A DNA stretch of 64,000 nt, taken from assembly GCF_003334305.1 (NCBI RefSeq), contig NZ_QOWS01000008.1; one strand, written 5' to 3'. The notes below the pieces were generated by a model. It did not search any database, had not been told where the DNA came from, and saw nothing but the letters and a program-made list of their open reading frames with translations. The position numbers and the translations under genes were made by a program. Below, piece after piece: positions 21,766 through 51,713 of this stretch; the first letter of the stretch is position 1; each line of letters starts with the position of its first letter. Origin of the DNA: Escherichia coli (GTDB lineage Bacteria; Pseudomonadota; Gammaproteobacteria; Enterobacterales; Enterobacteriaceae).

Positions 21766-22992
21766 TTATCCTTTTACGCACACCACCTGACGCAGGGTAT
21801 AGATAACTTCCACCAGATCGCTTTGTGCCGCCATCACCGCATCAATATCTTTATACGCCATCGGGATTTCGTCGATCACTTCGGCATCTTTACGGCATTC
21901 CACATGCGCGGTGGCACGAATTTGATCTTCCACGCTGAACAGTTTTTTCGCTTTAGTACGGCTCATTACCCGCCCGGCACCGTGGCTGCACGAACAGAAC
22001 GACTCTTCATTTCCCAGCCCACGGACGATAAAGCTTTTCGCTCCCATCGAACCGGGAATAATTCCATATTGACCAGCACGCGCAGACACCGCGCCTTTAC
22101 GCGTCACGTAGATCTCTTCGCCAAAGTGCTGTTCTTTTTGCACATAGTTGTGGTGACAGTTGATCTCTTCCATCGCCAGCGTTTGCTGTTGTCTTACCGT
22201 TTTCTGCGTAACGCTCTGCAACGCTGTTACTACGTTTTCCATCATTGCATCGCGGTTAAGGCTGGCAAAAAGCTGCGCCCAGGCCACCGCTTTCAGGTAA
22301 TCATCAAAGTATTCCGTACCTTCCATAAAGTACGCCAGATCACGCGACGGCAACGTTTCAAGCTGGTCCTGCATCTCTTTTTGCGCCAGATCGATAAAGT
22401 AAGTCCCGATGGCGTTACCAATTCCGCGTGAACCGGAGTGCAGCATAATCCACACCTGATCCGACTCATCAAGACAGATTTCAATAAAATGGTTACCCGT
22501 TCCCAGCGTTCCCAGATGTTTATAGTTATTGGTATTCAGGAAACGCGGATATTTTTGCGTTAACCACTGATAACCGGCTTCCAGCTCAGCCCATTTAGCA
22601 TCGACGTTAACAGGTGGATTTTCCCAGGCACCTTTATCACGTTTACAACGGCCAGTGGTACGCCCGTGCGGCACGGCCGTTTCAATCGCCTGACGCAGCT
22701 CTGCCAGGTTTTCAGGCAGGTCTTCCGCCGTTAACGCGGTACGCAGCGCGTTCATTCCACAGCCAATATCCACGCCCACCGCCGCCGGAATAATCGCCCC
22801 TTTGGTCGGGATCACGCTACCAATGGTGGAACCTTTACCCAGGTGTACATCAGGCATTACCGCAATATGTTTGAAAATAAACGGCATCTTCGCCGTATTA
22901 ATAAGTTGCTGACGCGCATCGGCTTCTACCGGCACGCCTTTGGTCCACATTTTTACCGGGGCATTTTCAGTGGGCAGTAATTCGTAATTCAT
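21766..22992 (-). CDS. rtcB: RNA-splicing ligase RtcB (408 aa)
   Basis: 408-aa ORF MNYELLPTENAPVKMWTKGVPVEADARQQL... with conserved RtcB metal/GTP-binding histidine and cysteine residues. Confidence 0.95.
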   Translation of the reverse strand: MNYELLPTENAPVKMWTKGVPVEADARQQLINTAKMPFIFKHIAVMPDVHLGKGSTIGSVIPTKGAIIPAAVGVDIGCGMNALRTALTAEDLPENLAELRQAIETAVPHGRTTGRCKRDKGAWENPPVNVDAKWAELEAGYQWLTQKYPRFLNTNNYKHLGTLGTGNHFIEICLDESDQVWIMLHSGSRGIGNAIGTYFIDLAQKEMQDQLETLPSRDLAYFMEGTEYFDDYLKAVAWAQLFASLNRDAMMENVVTALQSVTQKTVRQQQTLAMEEINCHHNYVQKEQHFGEEIYVTRKGAVSARAGQYGIIPGSMGAKSFIVRGLGNEESFCSCSHGAGRVMSRTKAKKLFSVEDQIRATAHVECRKDAEVIDEIPMAYKDIDAVMAAQSDLVEVIYTLRQVVCVKG

Positions 22993-23030
22993 TTTGTTTT
23001 TCTCTTTTCGTTGTTTGCTGTCGTGATAAT

Positions 23031-23047
23031 TGCAACCGTCGTGCCAG
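23031..23047 (-). promoter_or_regulatory. sigma54 (-24/-12) promoter of rtcBA
   Basis: Minus-strand sequence CTGGCACGACGGTTGCAA is a perfect TGGCAC-N5-TTGCA element, about 40 bp upstream of the rtcB ATG. Confidence 0.8.
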
Positions 23048-23180
23048 AAAATTAAATAAGCAGATTAATTTTTTAATTCATTGTTTTTAAATAGGTTAAA
23101 TCTTTACGTCCGTAAACGGAGATTTTCCACAAAACCAATTCACCGATAATGAAATATCGTCTTTTATAAGGATATCTAAG

Positions 23181-24779
23181 ATGCGTAAAACAGTGGCTTT
23201 TGGCTTTGTCGGTACCGTGCTGGATTATGCCGGACGCGGCAGTCAGCGCTGGTCGAAATGGCGTCCGACGCTTTGTTTATGCCAGCAAGAATCGTTAGTC
23301 ATCGATCGGCTGGAATTGTTGCACGACACCCGCTCGCGCTCGCTATTCGAAACGCTTAAACGCGATATCGCCAGCGTTTCGCCAGAAACAGAAGTCGTGG
23401 GCGTTGAGATTGAACTGCATAACCCGTGGGATTTCGAAGAGGTTTACGCCTGCCTGCATGATTTCGCCCGTGGTTACGAGTTTCAGCCAGAAAAAGAAGA
23501 CTATTTAATTCACATCACCACCGGCACCCACGTCGCGCAGATTTGCTGGTTTCTGCTGGCGGAAGCGCGTTACCTGCCCGCCCGGCTGATACAATCTTCA
23601 CCTCCGCGCAAAAAAGAACAGCCGCGCGGCGCAGGTGAAGTGACGATTATCGATCTCGATTTAAGCCGTTATAACGCCATCGCCAGCCGCTTTGCCGAGG
23701 AACGCCAGCAAACGCTTGATTTTCTTAAGTCCGGCATTGCCACGCGTAACCCCCACTTCAACCGCATGATTGAGCAGATCGAAAAAGTGGCGATCAAATC
23801 CCGCGCGCCGATTCTGCTTAACGGTCCAACCGGCGCGGGCAAGTCATTTCTGGCGCGACGCATCTTCGAGTTAAAACAGGCGCGGCATCAGTTTAGCGGC
23901 GCGTTTGTGGAAGTGAACTGCGCCACCCTGCGCGGCGATACCGCCATGTCGACGCTGTTTGGTCATGTAAAAGGCGCGTTTACCGGGGCGCGGGAATCTC
24001 GTGAAGGTTTATTACGCAGCGCCAACGGCGGAATGTTGTTTCTTGATGAGATTGGCGAACTGGGCGCAGACGAACAAGCAATGCTGCTAAAAGCCATTGA
24101 AGAGAAAACCTTTTACCCGTTTGGCAGCGATCGCCAGGTGAGCAGTGATTTTCAGCTTATCGCCGGAACGGTGCGCGATTTGCGCCAGCTGGTTGCCGAA
24201 GGCAAATTTCGCGAAGATCTGTACGCGCGGATCAATCTCTGGACCTTCACCCTGCCGGGTCTACGCCAGCGCCAGGAAGATATTGAACCGAACCTTGATT
24301 ATGAAGTGGAGCGCCACGCCACACTCACTGGCGACAGCGTGCGTTTTAACACCGAAGCGCGGCGCGCCTGGTTGGCTTTTGCGACCTCTCCCCAGGCAAC
24401 ATGGCGCGGTAACTTTCGCGAACTTTCTGCCAGCGTCACGCGGATGGCCACCTTTGCCACTAGCGGACGCATCACTCTGGACGTGGTTGAAGATGAGATA
24501 AACCGTCTGCGCTATAACTGGCAGGAGAGCCGCCCCTCCGCGCTTACGGCGTTGCTGGGCACAGAGGCAGAAAACATCGACCTTTTTGACAGGCTGCAAC
24601 TGGAACACGTGATAGCTCTCTGTCGCCAGGCAAAGTCGCTTTCCGCTGCCGGACGCCTGCTTTTTGATGTTTCGCGCCAGGGCAAAGCCAGCGTCAATGA
24701 CGCGGATCGGCTACGCAAATACCTGGCGCGTTTTGGTCTGACGTGGGAAGCCGTGCAGGATCAGCACAGCTCCAGTTGA
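23181..24779 (+). CDS. rtcR: sigma54-dependent activator RtcR (532 aa), N-terminal CARF-like domain plus AAA+ domain
   Basis: 532-aa [23 protein letters not shown]... with an AAA+ sigma54-interaction domain ([24 protein letters not shown]). Divergent from rtcBA. Confidence 0.93.
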
Positions 24780-28483: not shown

Positions 28484-29089
28484 TCATTGTAAATAATTGA
28501 ATAACGGCCCCTGAGCTAAAATCGCCAAACTTAAGCACGTTACCCAATCGCCCCACTTCTTCCTCTGGTTTCTATTTTTTCTGCACCAATGGCAATAATA
28601 TCCCCATGCAAAACCAAGCTGTGCACTAATCGGGCCGACAAAATCAGTCCAAGGCTGCGGCCAAAAAGGGGAAAAATTCAGGGGAGGCCAGACAAACGTC
28701 AGAAAGAAATTTCGGATATTTTCCAGCAACGCTGATTTCTCTGGAGAAATATAAAGAATGAAATTCGAGAGAATTAACCAGAAATAGACCGGCGAAAAGA
28801 CCAGCCAGCAATGCAGTCTGTTTTTTAATTCAGGAGGCGTTCTGCGGGAGAATTGCCAACCGATGCCAGCCATTACACTGAAAAAAAGTGCATATTCAAC
28901 CATTAACTCAAGTTGTAATTCCTGAAGAGAAATACGCACAACCAGGAGCGGAAAGGAGAATATTATTTCTGCCAGAAAAGTTAACGTGAATATAAGTACG
29001 GCTAAGACAATAACCGTCGGCCATACCAATAATGGCACGATAACAAAACCGAGAATTACAGGGGGAATATAAAGCCGGAATTTAATCAT
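28484..29089 (-). CDS. Hypothetical small polytopic membrane protein (201 aa), last gene of the unknown four-gene operon
   Basis: ATG start; 201-aa ORF MIKFRLYIPPVILGFVIVPLLVWPTVIVLAVLIF... with about 4-5 hydrophobic spans and a basic C-terminal segment (WCRKNRNQRKKW). The start lies 2 nt after the stop of the upstream gene. I do not recognise a family. Confidence 0.55.
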   Translation of the reverse strand: MIKFRLYIPPVILGFVIVPLLVWPTVIVLAVLIFTLTFLAEIIFSFPLLVVRISLQELQLELMVEYALFFSVMAGIGWQFSRRTPPELKNRLHCWLVFSPVYFWLILSNFILYISPEKSALLENIRNFFLTFVWPPLNFSPFWPQPWTDFVGPISAQLGFAWGYYCHWCRKNRNQRKKWGDWVTCLSLAILAQGPLFNYLQ

Positions 29090-29091
29090 TT

Positions 29092-29859
29092 TTATTTTCC
29101 TGGTGATTCGGATGATGCGTCATACATCGCGCATAAACACTCATCAATTATCCAGTCATCTTCCCAGACCTGATATTCTGTCATTGGTTCGGGCTGTTTT
29201 AGCGGATTCTCAATCGCTTGCCGCGCTCTTTCTTTCAGTAAAGGATGATTATTTCTAGCCCAGGCATTGATTTGGGTGGTAATGACGTTATCGATATCGT
29301 CCTGGTTATCTCTGATATAATCCTCACAATATCTGTTCAATAAACAGGCAAGAGAAACGGTCGACCAAAAGCCGGGAACTGAATTAATGGCATCCAGCAA
29401 TGGCGCAAGAGCGATATCGGCACGGAAAAACATTTCCAGCATATACTGTAATTCGACAGCTTCATCGCCGGATACCCAATCAGTCATATACTGGCAGGCA
29501 AATCGCTGTAAAATTGCCCGTTCATCCGCACGCCAGTTTTCTTTACTGGCAAGGTTTATACGCCGTAGAGAAAAAACTACGTGAATATTGTCAAAATGCC
29601 CCTGTGCAACAAATTCCAGTAAACGCGGCAGAAAATAGCGGACCTCATCGCTATTTTGCGGATCAGGCCCTGGGCTACTATTCCAGGCATTGATTAAGGA
29701 ATACGGGATCGCTCGTAACGATGTACTCCGTAATGCCTTTTGTTCCTGCTGACTCAGGCAATATTCACAACAAACCACAAATTTCTGCGGCACCTGATAA
29801 CGACGAAAGGTGTGATAAATCTGCTCAATTAATGCCTGCATGGCGGGGCTGGGTTGCAT
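29092..29859 (-). CDS. Hypothetical soluble acidic protein (255 aa), third gene of the unknown operon
   Basis: ATG start; MQPSPAMQALIEQIYHTFRRYQVPQKFVVCCEYCLSQQEQ... with Cys motifs (CCEYC, DECLC). Its stop is 2 nt from the next start. No recognisable family. Confidence 0.55.
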   Translation of the reverse strand: MQPSPAMQALIEQIYHTFRRYQVPQKFVVCCEYCLSQQEQKALRSTSLRAIPYSLINAWNSSPGPDPQNSDEVRYFLPRLLEFVAQGHFDNIHVVFSLRRINLASKENWRADERAILQRFACQYMTDWVSGDEAVELQYMLEMFFRADIALAPLLDAINSVPGFWSTVSLACLLNRYCEDYIRDNQDDIDNVITTQINAWARNNHPLLKERARQAIENPLKQPEPMTEYQVWEDDWIIDECLCAMYDASSESPGK

Positions 29860-29861
29860 AG

Positions 29862-49008: not shown

Positions 49009-49103
49009 AAAAAAAAAGCCAGCACCCGGCTGGCTAAGTAATACTGGAAGCAATGTGAGCAATGTCGTGCTTTCAGGTTCTCCGCGAGGGTCTTCCTGAT
49101 CGC
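49009..49103 (-). ncRNA. ryhB: Fur-repressed small RNA RyhB
   Basis: Minus-strand sequence GCGATCAGGAAGACCCTCGCGGAGAACCTGAAAGCACGACATTGCTCACATTGCTTCCAGTATTACTTAGCCAGCCGGGTGCTGGCTTTTTTTTT matches the RyhB sequence as I recall it, including the terminator hairpin and U9 tail. Confidence 0.92.
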
Positions 49104-49949: not shown

Positions 49950-51128
49950 ATGAGTAATATTGTTTACCTGACAGTAACGGGAGAACAACAAGGAAGCATC
50001 TCCGCAGGTTGTGGGACTTCTGAGTCTACAGGTAATCGTTGGCAGAGCGGGCATGAGGATGAAATATTTACATTCTCACTCTTAAATAATATTAATAATA
50101 CGGGGCTTGGTTCACAGTTCCATGGTATAACATTTTGTAAATTAATTGATAAAAGCACTCCATTATTTATTAATTCCATTAACAATAATGAACAATTATT
50201 TATGGGATTTGACTTCTATCGAATAAATAGATTTGGTAGATGGGAAAAGTATTATTATATACAACTAAAAGGCGCTTTTTTATCGGCTATTCATCATCAG
50301 ATCATTCAAAATCAACTGGATACAGAAACAATAACTGTTAGTTATGAATTTATCCTCTGTCAACATCTTATCGCAAATACCGAGTTCAGCTATTTGGCAC
50401 TCCCTGAAAATTATAACCGTTTGTTTTTACCAAATTCAAAAAACCAAACAAATAATCGTTTCAAAACGTTAAACAGCAAAGCTATTGGCAGGCTACTTGC
50501 TGCTGGTGGCGTATACAATGGGAACATTGAAGGATTCAGAGATACTGCGGAAAAACTGGGTGGAGATGCAATAAAAGGCTATGATCAAATACTAAATGAA
50601 AAAACAGCGGGCATAGCGATAGCAACAGCATCTATTCTTTTAACAAAGCGTTCTAATGTTGATACATATACAGAAATAAATAGTTACTTAGGCAAACTTA
50701 GAGGTCAACAAAAACTTCTTGATGGTATAGACATAATAGAAATAATATACATTAAGAGACCTTCAAAAGACTTAGCTAACTTACGAAAGGAGTTTAATAA
50801 AACTGTAAGAAAAAATTTTCTTATCAAACTTGCAAAAACCTCCGAAGCATCTGGAAGATTCAACGCCGAAGACCTTTTAAGAATGAGAAAGGGCAATGTT
50901 CCTCTAAATTATAATGTTCACCATAAACTATCTCTAGATGATGGTGGTACTAATGATTTCGAAAATTTAGTATTAATCGAAAACGAACCATATCATAAAG
51001 TTTTTACTAACATGCAATCACGAATAGCTAAGGGAATATTAGTAGGTGAAAGCAAAATCACTCCCTGGGCCATTCCATCTGGCTCAATTTATCCTCCCAT
51101 GAAAAATATTATGGACCACACAAAATGA
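49950..51128 (+). CDS. yhhZ: YhhZ-like polymorphic toxin (392 aa): N-terminal Hcp-like domain fused to a C-terminal HNH (beta-beta-alpha-metal) nuclease domain
   Basis: The N-terminus (MSNIVYLTVTGEQQGSISAGCGTS...) resembles Hcp/TssD. The C-terminus carries NYNVHHKLSLDDGGTNDFENLVLIENEPYHKVF (HH...N...H). Local sequence is strongly AT-rich compared with the flanking genes. Confidence 0.8.
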   Translation: MSNIVYLTVTGEQQGSISAGCGTSESTGNRWQSGHEDEIFTFSLLNNINNTGLGSQFHGITFCKLIDKSTPLFINSINNNEQLFMGFDFYRINRFGRWEKYYYIQLKGAFLSAIHHQIIQNQLDTETITVSYEFILCQHLIANTEFSYLALPENYNRLFLPNSKNQTNNRFKTLNSKAIGRLLAAGGVYNGNIEGFRDTAEKLGGDAIKGYDQILNEKTAGIAIATASILLTKRSNVDTYTEINSYLGKLRGQQKLLDGIDIIEIIYIKRPSKDLANLRKEFNKTVRKNFLIKLAKTSEASGRFNAEDLLRMRKGNVPLNYNVHHKLSLDDGGTNDFENLVLIENEPYHKVFTNMQSRIAKGILVGESKITPWAIPSGSIYPPMKNIMDHTK

Positions 51129-51619
51129 TGACTAAAACCCAAATAAATAAATTAATAAAAATGATGAATGATTTAGACTATCCATTTGAAGCACCGCTCA
51201 AGGAATCATTTATTGAAAGTATAATCCAAATAGAATTTAATTCTAATTCAACTAATTGCCTGGAGAAGTTATGTAATGAAGTTAGTATTCTTTTTAAGAA
51301 TCAACCTGATTATCTTACTTTTTTAAGAGCAATGGATGGATTCGAAGTTAATGGATTACGATTATTTAGCCTCTCGATTCCAGAACCTTCAGTTAAAAAC
51401 CTTTTTGCCGTAAATGAATTTTATAGAAATAATGATGATTTCATAAACCCTGATCTACAAGAACGGTTAGTGATCGGGGATGATAGCATTTCAATATTTA
51501 CTTATGACATTAAAAGTAACTTTTTTGAAATTAGAGATAATATTGGCACAGAAAATATATTCAGTTCGTTTAGTGATTTCTCTTCATTCTTAAACGAAAT
51601 CATGGACAGTTGTTCATAA
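51125..51619 (+). CDS. yrhA: YrhA-like putative immunity protein (164 aa), translationally coupled to yhhZ
   Basis: The ATG overlaps the yhhZ TGA (ATGA). Acidic 164-aa product MMTKTQINKLIKMMNDLDYPFEAPLKESFIES..., AT-rich. No IS1 sequence interrupts it. Confidence 0.65.
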   Translation: MMTKTQINKLIKMMNDLDYPFEAPLKESFIESIIQIEFNSNSTNCLEKLCNEVSILFKNQPDYLTFLRAMDGFEVNGLRLFSLSIPEPSVKNLFAVNEFYRNNDDFINPDLQERLVIGDDSISIFTYDIKSNFFEIRDNIGTENIFSSFSDFSSFLNEIMDSCS

Positions 51620-51713
51620 TAATCAAAAGGAAACAAAAATCATTGTAAACCATGCCATCTTTTTAGAGATTACCAGCAGAAAATTCCTTGTTCGAAATTT
51701 AGCAGTGCAAGCT

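Follow-up and report, generated by a model that had tools for sequence, protein, structure and literature searches.

How does one short stretch of DNA between rtcB and rtcR of Escherichia coli serve an RNA repair operon on one side and the gene of its own activator on the other? We addressed this question in a stretch of 64,000 nucleotides, referred to here at its full length as the window, in which the rtcB start codon occupies positions 22992–22990 and that of rtcR begins at 23181; 22993–23180 is therefore exactly the 188-bp intergenic region. We consider it very probable that this region, taken as a whole, is the divergent control region of the rtcBA operon and of the activator gene rtcR, with rtcBA driven by σ54 and RtcR. 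The locus itself is a re-identified, characterised system whose value lies mainly in correct annotation, and the promoter and the RtcR/σ54 dependence of rtcBA are already known. The new element is confined to a predicted RtcR-binding dyad and the possible autoregulation of rtcR associated with it. The features discussed below are compiled in Table 1.

Table 1. Genes and known or predicted control elements at the rtcBA–rtcR locus (window coordinates; positions with a minus sign refer to the predicted rtcBA start).
Feature	Position	Strand	Basis
rtcA (second in the operon), RNA 3'-terminal phosphate cyclase, 338 aa	20746–21762	-	NCBIfam equivalog; RefSeq annotation of a 99%-identical strain
rtcB (first in the operon), RNA ligase, 408 aa	21766–22992	-	PF01139; RefSeq 'RNA-splicing ligase RtcB'
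Predicted rtcBA 5' untranslated leader, 28 nt, +1 predicted at C23020	22993–23020	-	inferred from -12 GC
σ54 promoter CTGGCACGACGGTTGCAA	23030–23047	-	consensus match; K-12 ChIP-seq site OS35; 24/24 RtcR loci
Very AT-rich spacer (~14% G+C in 23050–23100), presumed bending region	23048–23100	.	composition; contains IHF-like matches
Second IHF-like candidate, one mismatch	23066–23078		consensus match to WATCAANNNNTTR
IHF-like site AAACAATGAATTA, centre about -60	23074–23086	-	consensus match (12/13 specified positions of WATCAANNNNTTR)
Escherichia-only conserved block containing TCCGTAAACGGA	23107–23128	.	allele comparison
Only σ70-like rtcR promoter candidate (weak): -35 TTTTCC 23123–23128, 16-bp spacer, -10 GATAAT 23145–23150	23123–23150	+	relaxed scan, 8/12 matches
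Dyad CGATA-N6-TATCG, predicted core of RtcR UAS, -124 to -139 (centre about -131)	23144–23159	.	conservation
rtcR translation-initiation region with SD AAGGA 23169–23173 and GATATC 23171–23176	23163–23180	+	fully conserved in Escherichia
rtcR, σ54 enhancer-binding protein of 532 aa with CARF-like RtcR domain, AAA+ domain and putative C-terminal HTH	23181–24779	+	NCBIfam, Pfam, motifs

All three genes of the module are present at full length, and their products are 98–99% identical to the K-12 proteins. RtcA, which has 330 of its 338 residues in common with K-12, scores 779 bits against the NCBIfam equivalog NF003247 (cut-off 333) and contains His308, the histidine that becomes adenylated. RtcB (403 of 408 residues as in K-12) matches PF01139 with E = 6e-134 and possesses both the nucleophile His337 and the metal-binding Cys78; the NCBIfam models that it matched are intein- or subfamily-specific, with scores below their cut-offs. 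Cys78 and His337 of RtcB and His308 of RtcA are the residues that were mutated as catalytic by Engl 2016 (PMC5175333). The first-pass annotation had described a complete RNA repair module consisting of cyclase, ligase and dedicated activator, a view that is borne out by three intact genes with their family matches and catalytic residues.

It was also right in regarding RtcR as a σ54 enhancer-binding protein with an N-terminal CARF-like domain. The protein (523 of 532 residues as in K-12) scores 847.8 bits against the NCBIfam equivalog NF038308 (RNA_repair_RtcR; cut-off 650). PF06956 (RtcR/CARF-like) covers residues 2–185 with E = 2e-85 and PF00158 (Sigma54_activat) residues 187–354, the latter domain being accompanied by the Walker A motif GPTGAGKS at 215 and by GAFTGA at 265. 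For residues 445–532 Pfam gives no HTH family; the alignment of this part shows a highly conserved Fis-like segment, and the predicted recognition helix of 10 residues is invariant from E. coli to Desulfovibrio. The CARF domain of RtcR is repressive and has been reported to bind RtcA, RtcB and tRNA fragments that carry a terminal 2',3'-cyclic phosphate (PMC9650030, PMC7790460). The Rtc system has been linked to tolerance of ribosome-targeting antibiotics (PMC12606134). Against the assignments of genes and promoter we encountered no evidence.

The 801 bases around the promoter site have matches in 4858 of 5426 complete E. coli genomes; one strain is 100%, strain WAT 99.8% and K-12 derivatives are 96.9% identical. 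From ompR to livK the window is collinear with WAT, the exception being an IS621 that is present in WAT and absent from the window, and the gene order malT, rtcA, rtcB / rtcR, glpR, glpG, glpE, glpD is that of K-12. Although locus, synteny and the intergenic length of 188 bp are the same as in K-12, the window carries an allele of a non-K-12 lineage that differs by 11 substitutions within the 188 bp. They include G-to-C at -3 (23023), several changes in 23087–23100 and one in the TCCGTAAACGGA repeat, whereas the -24/-12 box, the dyad and 23066–23086 are free of differences; the 17-mer CTGGCACGACGGTTGCA and the IHF-like stretch are thus identical in the two alleles. Six more E. coli or Escherichia alleles were read for variation within the genus. 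Conserved among them are 22993–23062 (leader and promoter), 23066–23086, 23107–23128 and 23140–23180, and the promoter box is unchanged apart from a single base on its spacer side that differs in strain WAT. The segment 23087–23106 is variable and in strain E70 has lost 12 bp, which shortens the distance between dyad and promoter from 107 to 95 bp, or by about one helical turn. Strain EC8 has one substitution in a dyad half-site.

A perfect -24 GG/-12 GC motif on the minus strand, about 40 bp upstream of rtcB, had been noted before, and closer inspection agrees with this on every point. The GG doublet is located at 23045/23044 and the GC doublet at 23033/23032, exactly 10 bp apart, which is the canonical spacing; on the plus strand the same positions read ttgcaaccgtcgtgccag. 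The element points toward rtcB, its 3' end being 37 bp and its -12 GC 39–40 bp away from the ATG. TGGCACGACGGTTGCA (23046–23031, minus strand) has no mismatch to TGGCAC-N5-TTGCW, and the extended σ54 consensus YTGGCACGR-N3-TTGCW is also satisfied, with C before and A after TGGCACG and a further A following TTGCA. On both strands of the 64 kb this is the sole exact match, 0.13 being expected from shuffled sequences. With one mismatch tolerated the number of σ54-like matches in the window rises to five, which is the level of chance, and the others (at 2179, 5734, 50486 and 55828, one mismatch each) were set aside.

Because the -12 GC lies at 23033/23032, transcription of rtcBA is predicted to start at C23020, 28 nt before the ATG. 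This value agrees with the distance of 28 given for σ54 ChIP-seq site OS35 of K-12, a minus-strand site assigned to rtcB and flagged as previously confirmed (Bonocora 2015, PMC4591121). The OS35 17-mer CTGGCACGACGGTTGCA is identical to that of the window. An ApC dinucleotide at -1/+1 primed transcription from native PrtcBA (PMC9650030), and this fits A23021/C23020 on the minus strand. The epithet 'textbook' that the promoter had been given is justified by the extended consensus and by the identity with OS35 but needs a nuance in that the native rtcBA promoter is 'very weak in vitro'; for this reason its -24/-12 elements were swapped for those of nifH in transcription assays (PMC9650030).

For the DNA between promoter and rtcR the literature offered less guidance. 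Neither Kotta-Loizou 2022 (text and supplements) nor Hughes 2020, Kurasz 2023 or the modelling paper of 2025 contains a sequence-level definition of the upstream activating sequence (UAS) or of the IHF site, and rtc is not mentioned in the Desulfovibrio σ54 regulome paper. We therefore resorted to phylogenetic footprinting. One scan of species-representative genomes yielded 18 usable RtcR loci, and nine further look-ups covered Salmonella, Enterobacter, Phytobacter, another enteric bacterium, Caballeronia, Ralstonia, Chitinolyticbacter, Niveibacterium and one MAG. Promoters were counted over 24 loci whose upstream DNA was read, ranging from Escherichia to Desulfovibrio, dyads and IHF sites over 22 non-redundant ones. 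In 24/24 loci the divergent strand carries a -24/-12 box that deviates from the consensus at no more than two positions, 127–197 bp and mostly 130–160 bp from the rtcR ATG. It is kept whatever gene comes first downstream, be it rtcB, rsr/TROVE, a band-7 gene or a zinc-ribbon gene.

The segment beyond the promoter had been described as AT-rich, and indeed the G+C content is 25.6% in 23048–23180 and drops to 13.7% in 23050–23100, compared with 52% in the whole window; just 0.3% of the 133-bp segments are as AT-rich as 23048–23180. UAS and an IHF bend had been expected here, in 23050–23180, and this expectation agrees with the description by the Buck laboratory, whose papers refer to 'the rtcBA UAS' (PMC5175333, PMC9650030), and with the footprints that we predict from the comparison of loci. 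Matches to the IHF consensus WATCAANNNNTTR occur in the same orientation 25–38 bp upstream of the -24 GG across RtcR loci. An exact consensus is found there in 7 of the 22 non-redundant loci (0.03 expected) and a site with at most one mismatch in 14 of them (0.69 expected); neither count was reached in 1000 shuffles. The centres of these sites fall into two classes, 25.5–26.5 or 35.5–37.5 bp from the -24 GG, that are about one helical turn apart, and AAACAATGAATTA of Escherichia belongs to the 35.5 class.

Binding of IHF to the E. coli candidate site is thus plausible. An alternative that we rate as distinctly less probable, yet worth serious attention, is that Fis or intrinsic curvature bends the AT-rich spacer and that the IHF-like match in E. 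coli is incidental. Fis is a serious alternative to IHF, or its partner, because the orthologous promoter in Salmonella cannot be activated without fis (PMC9879122). Moreover, the single mismatch of the E. coli site affects a well-conserved position of the core (ATCAA to AACAA), the assignment is made ambiguous by the second candidate at a distance of 8 bp, and one-mismatch matches arise easily in DNA of 14% G+C. Incidental matches would, however, hardly account for exact sites at the same relative position and in the same orientation in 7 of the 22 loci or for position classes separated by a helical turn, and 'the rtc IHF binding site' was used by the Buck laboratory in a hybrid promoter (PMC9650030). 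IHF and Fis could also both act.

Further upstream, the comparison pointed to the dyad at 23144–23159 as the putative core of the RtcR enhancer, which we put forward as a modest new prediction. GATA-N6-TATC occurs as a single copy in the 64 kb. Among the Enterobacteriaceae the half-sites cGATA-N6-TATCg are invariant in nine of nine loci, which are, to be sure, related to each other; flanks differ, as do the spacers (atgaaa, atttac, attaaa, ttttaa, attatt, ataaat), and elsewhere the intergenic sequences are too divergent to be aligned. The position of the dyad is equally constant: from its centre it is 105–107 bp to the -24 GG downstream and, on the other side, 29.5 bp to the start codon of rtcR (30.5 bp in Superficieibacter). 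In Pseudomonas, Accumulibacter, Caballeronia and a MAG of an uncultured relative whose RtcR is 77% identical, the everted form TATC-N6-GATA directly precedes the rtcR ATG. Iodobacter and Ralstonia have versions with one mismatch, and one Pseudomonas has both forms. Outside the enteric bacteria the half-sites are everted and nearer to the start codon, an arrangement not easily reconciled with one dimer geometry for all loci. Altogether, a GATA/TATC dyad with a 6-bp spacer is present in 13 of 22 non-redundant loci compared with 0.17 expected, a number that none of 1000 shuffles reached, with the proviso that the motif was chosen after inspection of the sequences.

When all 4-mer dyads were counted in an unbiased census, GATA-N6-TATC came out on top with 5 of 13 loci. 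As AT-only dyads are common, this raw count does not reach significance when it is compared with the highest count of any dyad: some AT-only dyad equalled it in about 12% of the shuffles. The case for the dyad therefore relies on the number expected for this particular dyad and on the conservation of its position, and not on the census count. A generic repeat finder reported weak AT-rich inverted repeats only (pairs I1–I7); these do not include CGATA/TATCG, whose exact arms of 5 bp are shorter than the 6-base seed. A short inverted repeat, TCCGTAAACGGA at 23109–23120, was considered as a UAS candidate and rejected, as it is limited to Escherichia and broken in K-12.

What is known of RtcR is compatible with such a site. 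A reporter that contains no more than the 175 nt preceding the rtcB ATG still responds to RtcR (PMC5175333), and this fragment (22993–23167) includes the dyad. A half-site shared across taxa would also fit the invariant recognition helix. GATATC within the rtcR translation-initiation region possibly represents an extra RtcR half-site. On balance, we lean slightly toward the view that the dyad is the long-undefined enhancer of RtcR, with everted versions in Pseudomonas and Betaproteobacteria, that it links the activation of rtcBA with a negative feedback of RtcR on its own gene, and that it sets the fixed geometry observed across phyla, in which about 130–160 bp separate the rtcR ATG from the -24 box.

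It seems rather unlikely, but deserves consideration, that the dyad instead represents rtcR's own σ70 promoter, with GATAAT as -10 hexamer, plus leader, or the operator of another regulator, and that the RtcR sites are located elsewhere in 23100–23140. GATAAT is the only σ70-like -10 hexamer available for rtcR, the dyad lies 22–37 bp before the ATG, where promoter and leader are expected, and 23107–23128 constitutes a second block conserved in Escherichia. Also, we found no published RtcR footprint, and a review of 2016 states that the RtcR enhancer sequence is 'not known' (PMC4987338). A -10 hexamer, however, leaves the invariant TATCG unexplained that follows at a distance of exactly 6 bp across a variable spacer. 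The block at 23107–23128 is not conserved in other Enterobacteriaceae, whereas GATA/TATC dyads recur beside rtcR in Pseudomonas and Betaproteobacteria, which share only RtcR and the σ54 box; the invariance of the recognition helix likewise speaks for RtcR. Finally, the roles of promoter and enhancer are not mutually exclusive.

Under the enhancer reading this dual use has regulatory implications. The overlap of the dyad with the -10 hexamer suggests autoregulation of rtcR, and because of this overlap and of the location of the dyad 22–37 bp before the ATG RtcR probably limits its own synthesis. Such a dual-use arrangement would also impose the near-constant spacing of 130–160 bp between rtcR ATG and -24 box seen across phyla. 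We liken the proposed self-repression to the known autoregulation of pspF. In E. coli, pspF, which encodes an enhancer-binding protein, is divergent from its σ54 target operon pspABCDE. An IHF site is located between UAS and promoter, the UAS themselves being adjacent to the promoter of the activator gene or overlapping it, and pspF is negatively autoregulated. The likeness is limited by the fact that PspF lacks a sensory domain and is under the control of PspA, whereas RtcR possesses a CARF-like domain, and autoregulation of rtcR is deduced from the position of the dyad.

We propose the following course of events. σ54-RNA polymerase would bind to 23030–23047 as a closed complex, as is known from K-12 and Salmonella, and only remodelling by RtcR at the expense of ATP would open this complex for initiation at about C23020. 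The CARF-like N-terminal domain would hold the AAA+ domain inactive until a signal of RNA damage arrives, which according to the literature consists of tRNA fragments with 2',3'-cyclic phosphate ends and also requires RtcA and RtcB. These steps were established in K-12 and Salmonella and should apply to the present allele by near-identity. RtcR may then assemble on the dyad core, possibly along with GATATC at 23171–23176, and a bend near -60 within 23048–23100, introduced by IHF and/or Fis, would allow the enhancer-bound activator to reach the polymerase. By the same token, dyad-bound RtcR would probably repress rtcR.

The promoter part of this model has a long history. Genschik et al. 1998 are the source that later papers cite for the dependence of rtcBA on RtcR and σ54. 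Reportedly, an N-terminally truncated RtcR drove rtcBA in a σ54-dependent manner in that study, and -12 TTGCA and -24 TGGCA elements preceded the mapped rtcBA start. In Salmonella, the σ54 box TGGCACGCTGGTTGCAAT was bound by σ54 and its activity was rpoN-dependent (PMC3844500). Occupancy by σ54 and dependence on rpoN and the enhancer-binding protein may be carried over to the window by near-identity, based on these reports on the identical K-12 sequence and on Salmonella. The view that the -24/-12 sequence arose by chance or is transcriptionally inert, and that another promoter drives rtcBA, can be dismissed almost entirely, even though an exact match in 64 kb is in itself not very rare, many E. 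coli σ54 ChIP sites are intragenic and inactive (PMC4591121) and the native promoter is weak in vitro, since the match has the right position and strand beside the gene of a dedicated enhancer-binding protein, the box is kept in every locus compared, σ54 binds in vivo in K-12 and rpoN is needed in Salmonella, the promoter scan found nothing σ70-like on the rtcB strand, and for K-12 it was already reported that an rpoN mutant loses the induced rtcBA mRNA.

With regard to other signals, the σ70 promoter scan found no candidate with at least 9/12 matches on either strand. Rfam at gathering threshold detected RyhB alone in the whole window, far from the region, and no RNA family in 22850–23350 with E up to 1; we thus see no Y RNA, riboswitch or leader family in the region. 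The only small open reading frames that overlap the intergenic region, three with TTG starts and 21–22 aa long, were treated as noise.

The locations predicted for RtcR binding and for the bend are concrete, can be tested cheaply and are of specialist interest. They could aid the design of reporters, for which the weakness of the native promoter is a handicap, the search for further RtcR targets and the explanation of low RtcR levels. A related system is the rsr-yrlBA-rtcBA promoter (rsrp) of Salmonella Typhimurium, which is divergent from rtcR and activated by RtcR as in E. coli. There, genes for Ro60 (rsr) and Y RNAs precede rtcBA, whereas E. coli has neither rsr nor Y RNAs, and activation runs via RecA/LexA and Gifsy-1 genes and needs Fis (PMC9879122). 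The S. enterica locus included in our comparison is of the rtcBA type without rsr, and its GATA-N6-TATC dyad is the same as that of E. coli and lies at the same distance.

Allelic differences within the divergent rtcR/rtcBA intergenic region lie near the rtcBA promoter and in the spacer upstream of it. At position 23023, which corresponds to -3 on the transcribed strand, the window and the Escherichia coli strains WAT and ES7 carry C instead of G. The seventh base of the -24 box (position 23040) is likewise variable, this element reading TGGCACA in WAT as against TGGCACG. Strain E70 (locus L026 among the genome segments compared) harbors a natural deletion of 12 bp at window positions 23087-23098, in the variable spacer that connects the IHF-like site with the dyad predicted to form the RtcR enhancer core. 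This deletion brings the predicted enhancer closer to the promoter by approximately one helical turn.

A further element of this region is a conserved block that was found exclusively in Escherichia and is absent from the RtcR loci of the other Enterobacteriaceae compared. Allele comparison revealed a substitution in K-12 within the inverted repeat that it contains. The coordinates of this block and of additional features of the window are listed in the table.

Features of the window
Feature	Position	Strand	Remarks
Conserved block	23107-23128		Escherichia only; holds short inverted repeat TCCGTAAACGGA
Four genes, glpD-glgP interval	28484-32095	-	Annotation of near-identical WAT
RyhB small RNA	49010-49074	-	Rfam RF00057, 83 bits
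Hcp1-family type VI secretion effector gene (tssD/yhhZ), then yrhA	~49950-51620	+	WAT annotation; coordinates transferred approximately

In some strains, IS1 has inserted at the rtc locus. Strain ES7 matches the window at 100% identity from position 22700 to 23500 and has its rtcB gene disrupted by IS1 (L025, 1752-2449). In isolate NRZ100600, IS1 (L029, 3288-4001) adjoins a deletion through which malT, rtcA, rtcB and the promoter region have been lost together with the 5' end of rtcR. No match to window positions 22700-23500 was present in 568 of 5426 complete E. coli genomes.

The first gene located behind the RtcR-linked σ54 promoter differs between taxa, as seen in loci L031, L032 and L037 (upstream of rtcR) and in L035 and L038. 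In Enterobacter, Phytobacter and Ralstonia this position is taken by Ro60/TROVE (rsr); Chitinolyticbacter has a gene for a band-7 protein there, and Niveibacterium one for a zinc-ribbon (zf_Tbcl) protein. Caballeronia and one MAG possess rtcB followed by RlaP-family genes. In the window, rtcR (+) converges with a glpR-family gene (-), and the 3' ends of the two genes overlap by 19 bp (24761-24779).

Between nfuA and gntT, WAT contains a copy of the IS110-like element IS621, about 1.28 kb long, that is missing from the window (position ~11232); otherwise, both sequences are collinear with approximately 99% identity. According to the WAT annotation, the genes in the glpD-glgP interval code for three hypothetical proteins and one PstS-family phosphate-binding protein; the corresponding K-12 interval presumably contains a pseudogene remnant only. 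RyhB was the sole Rfam match at the gathering threshold when the whole window was scanned, and the tssD/yhhZ-yrhA pair annotated in WAT adjoins ryhB/yhhY.
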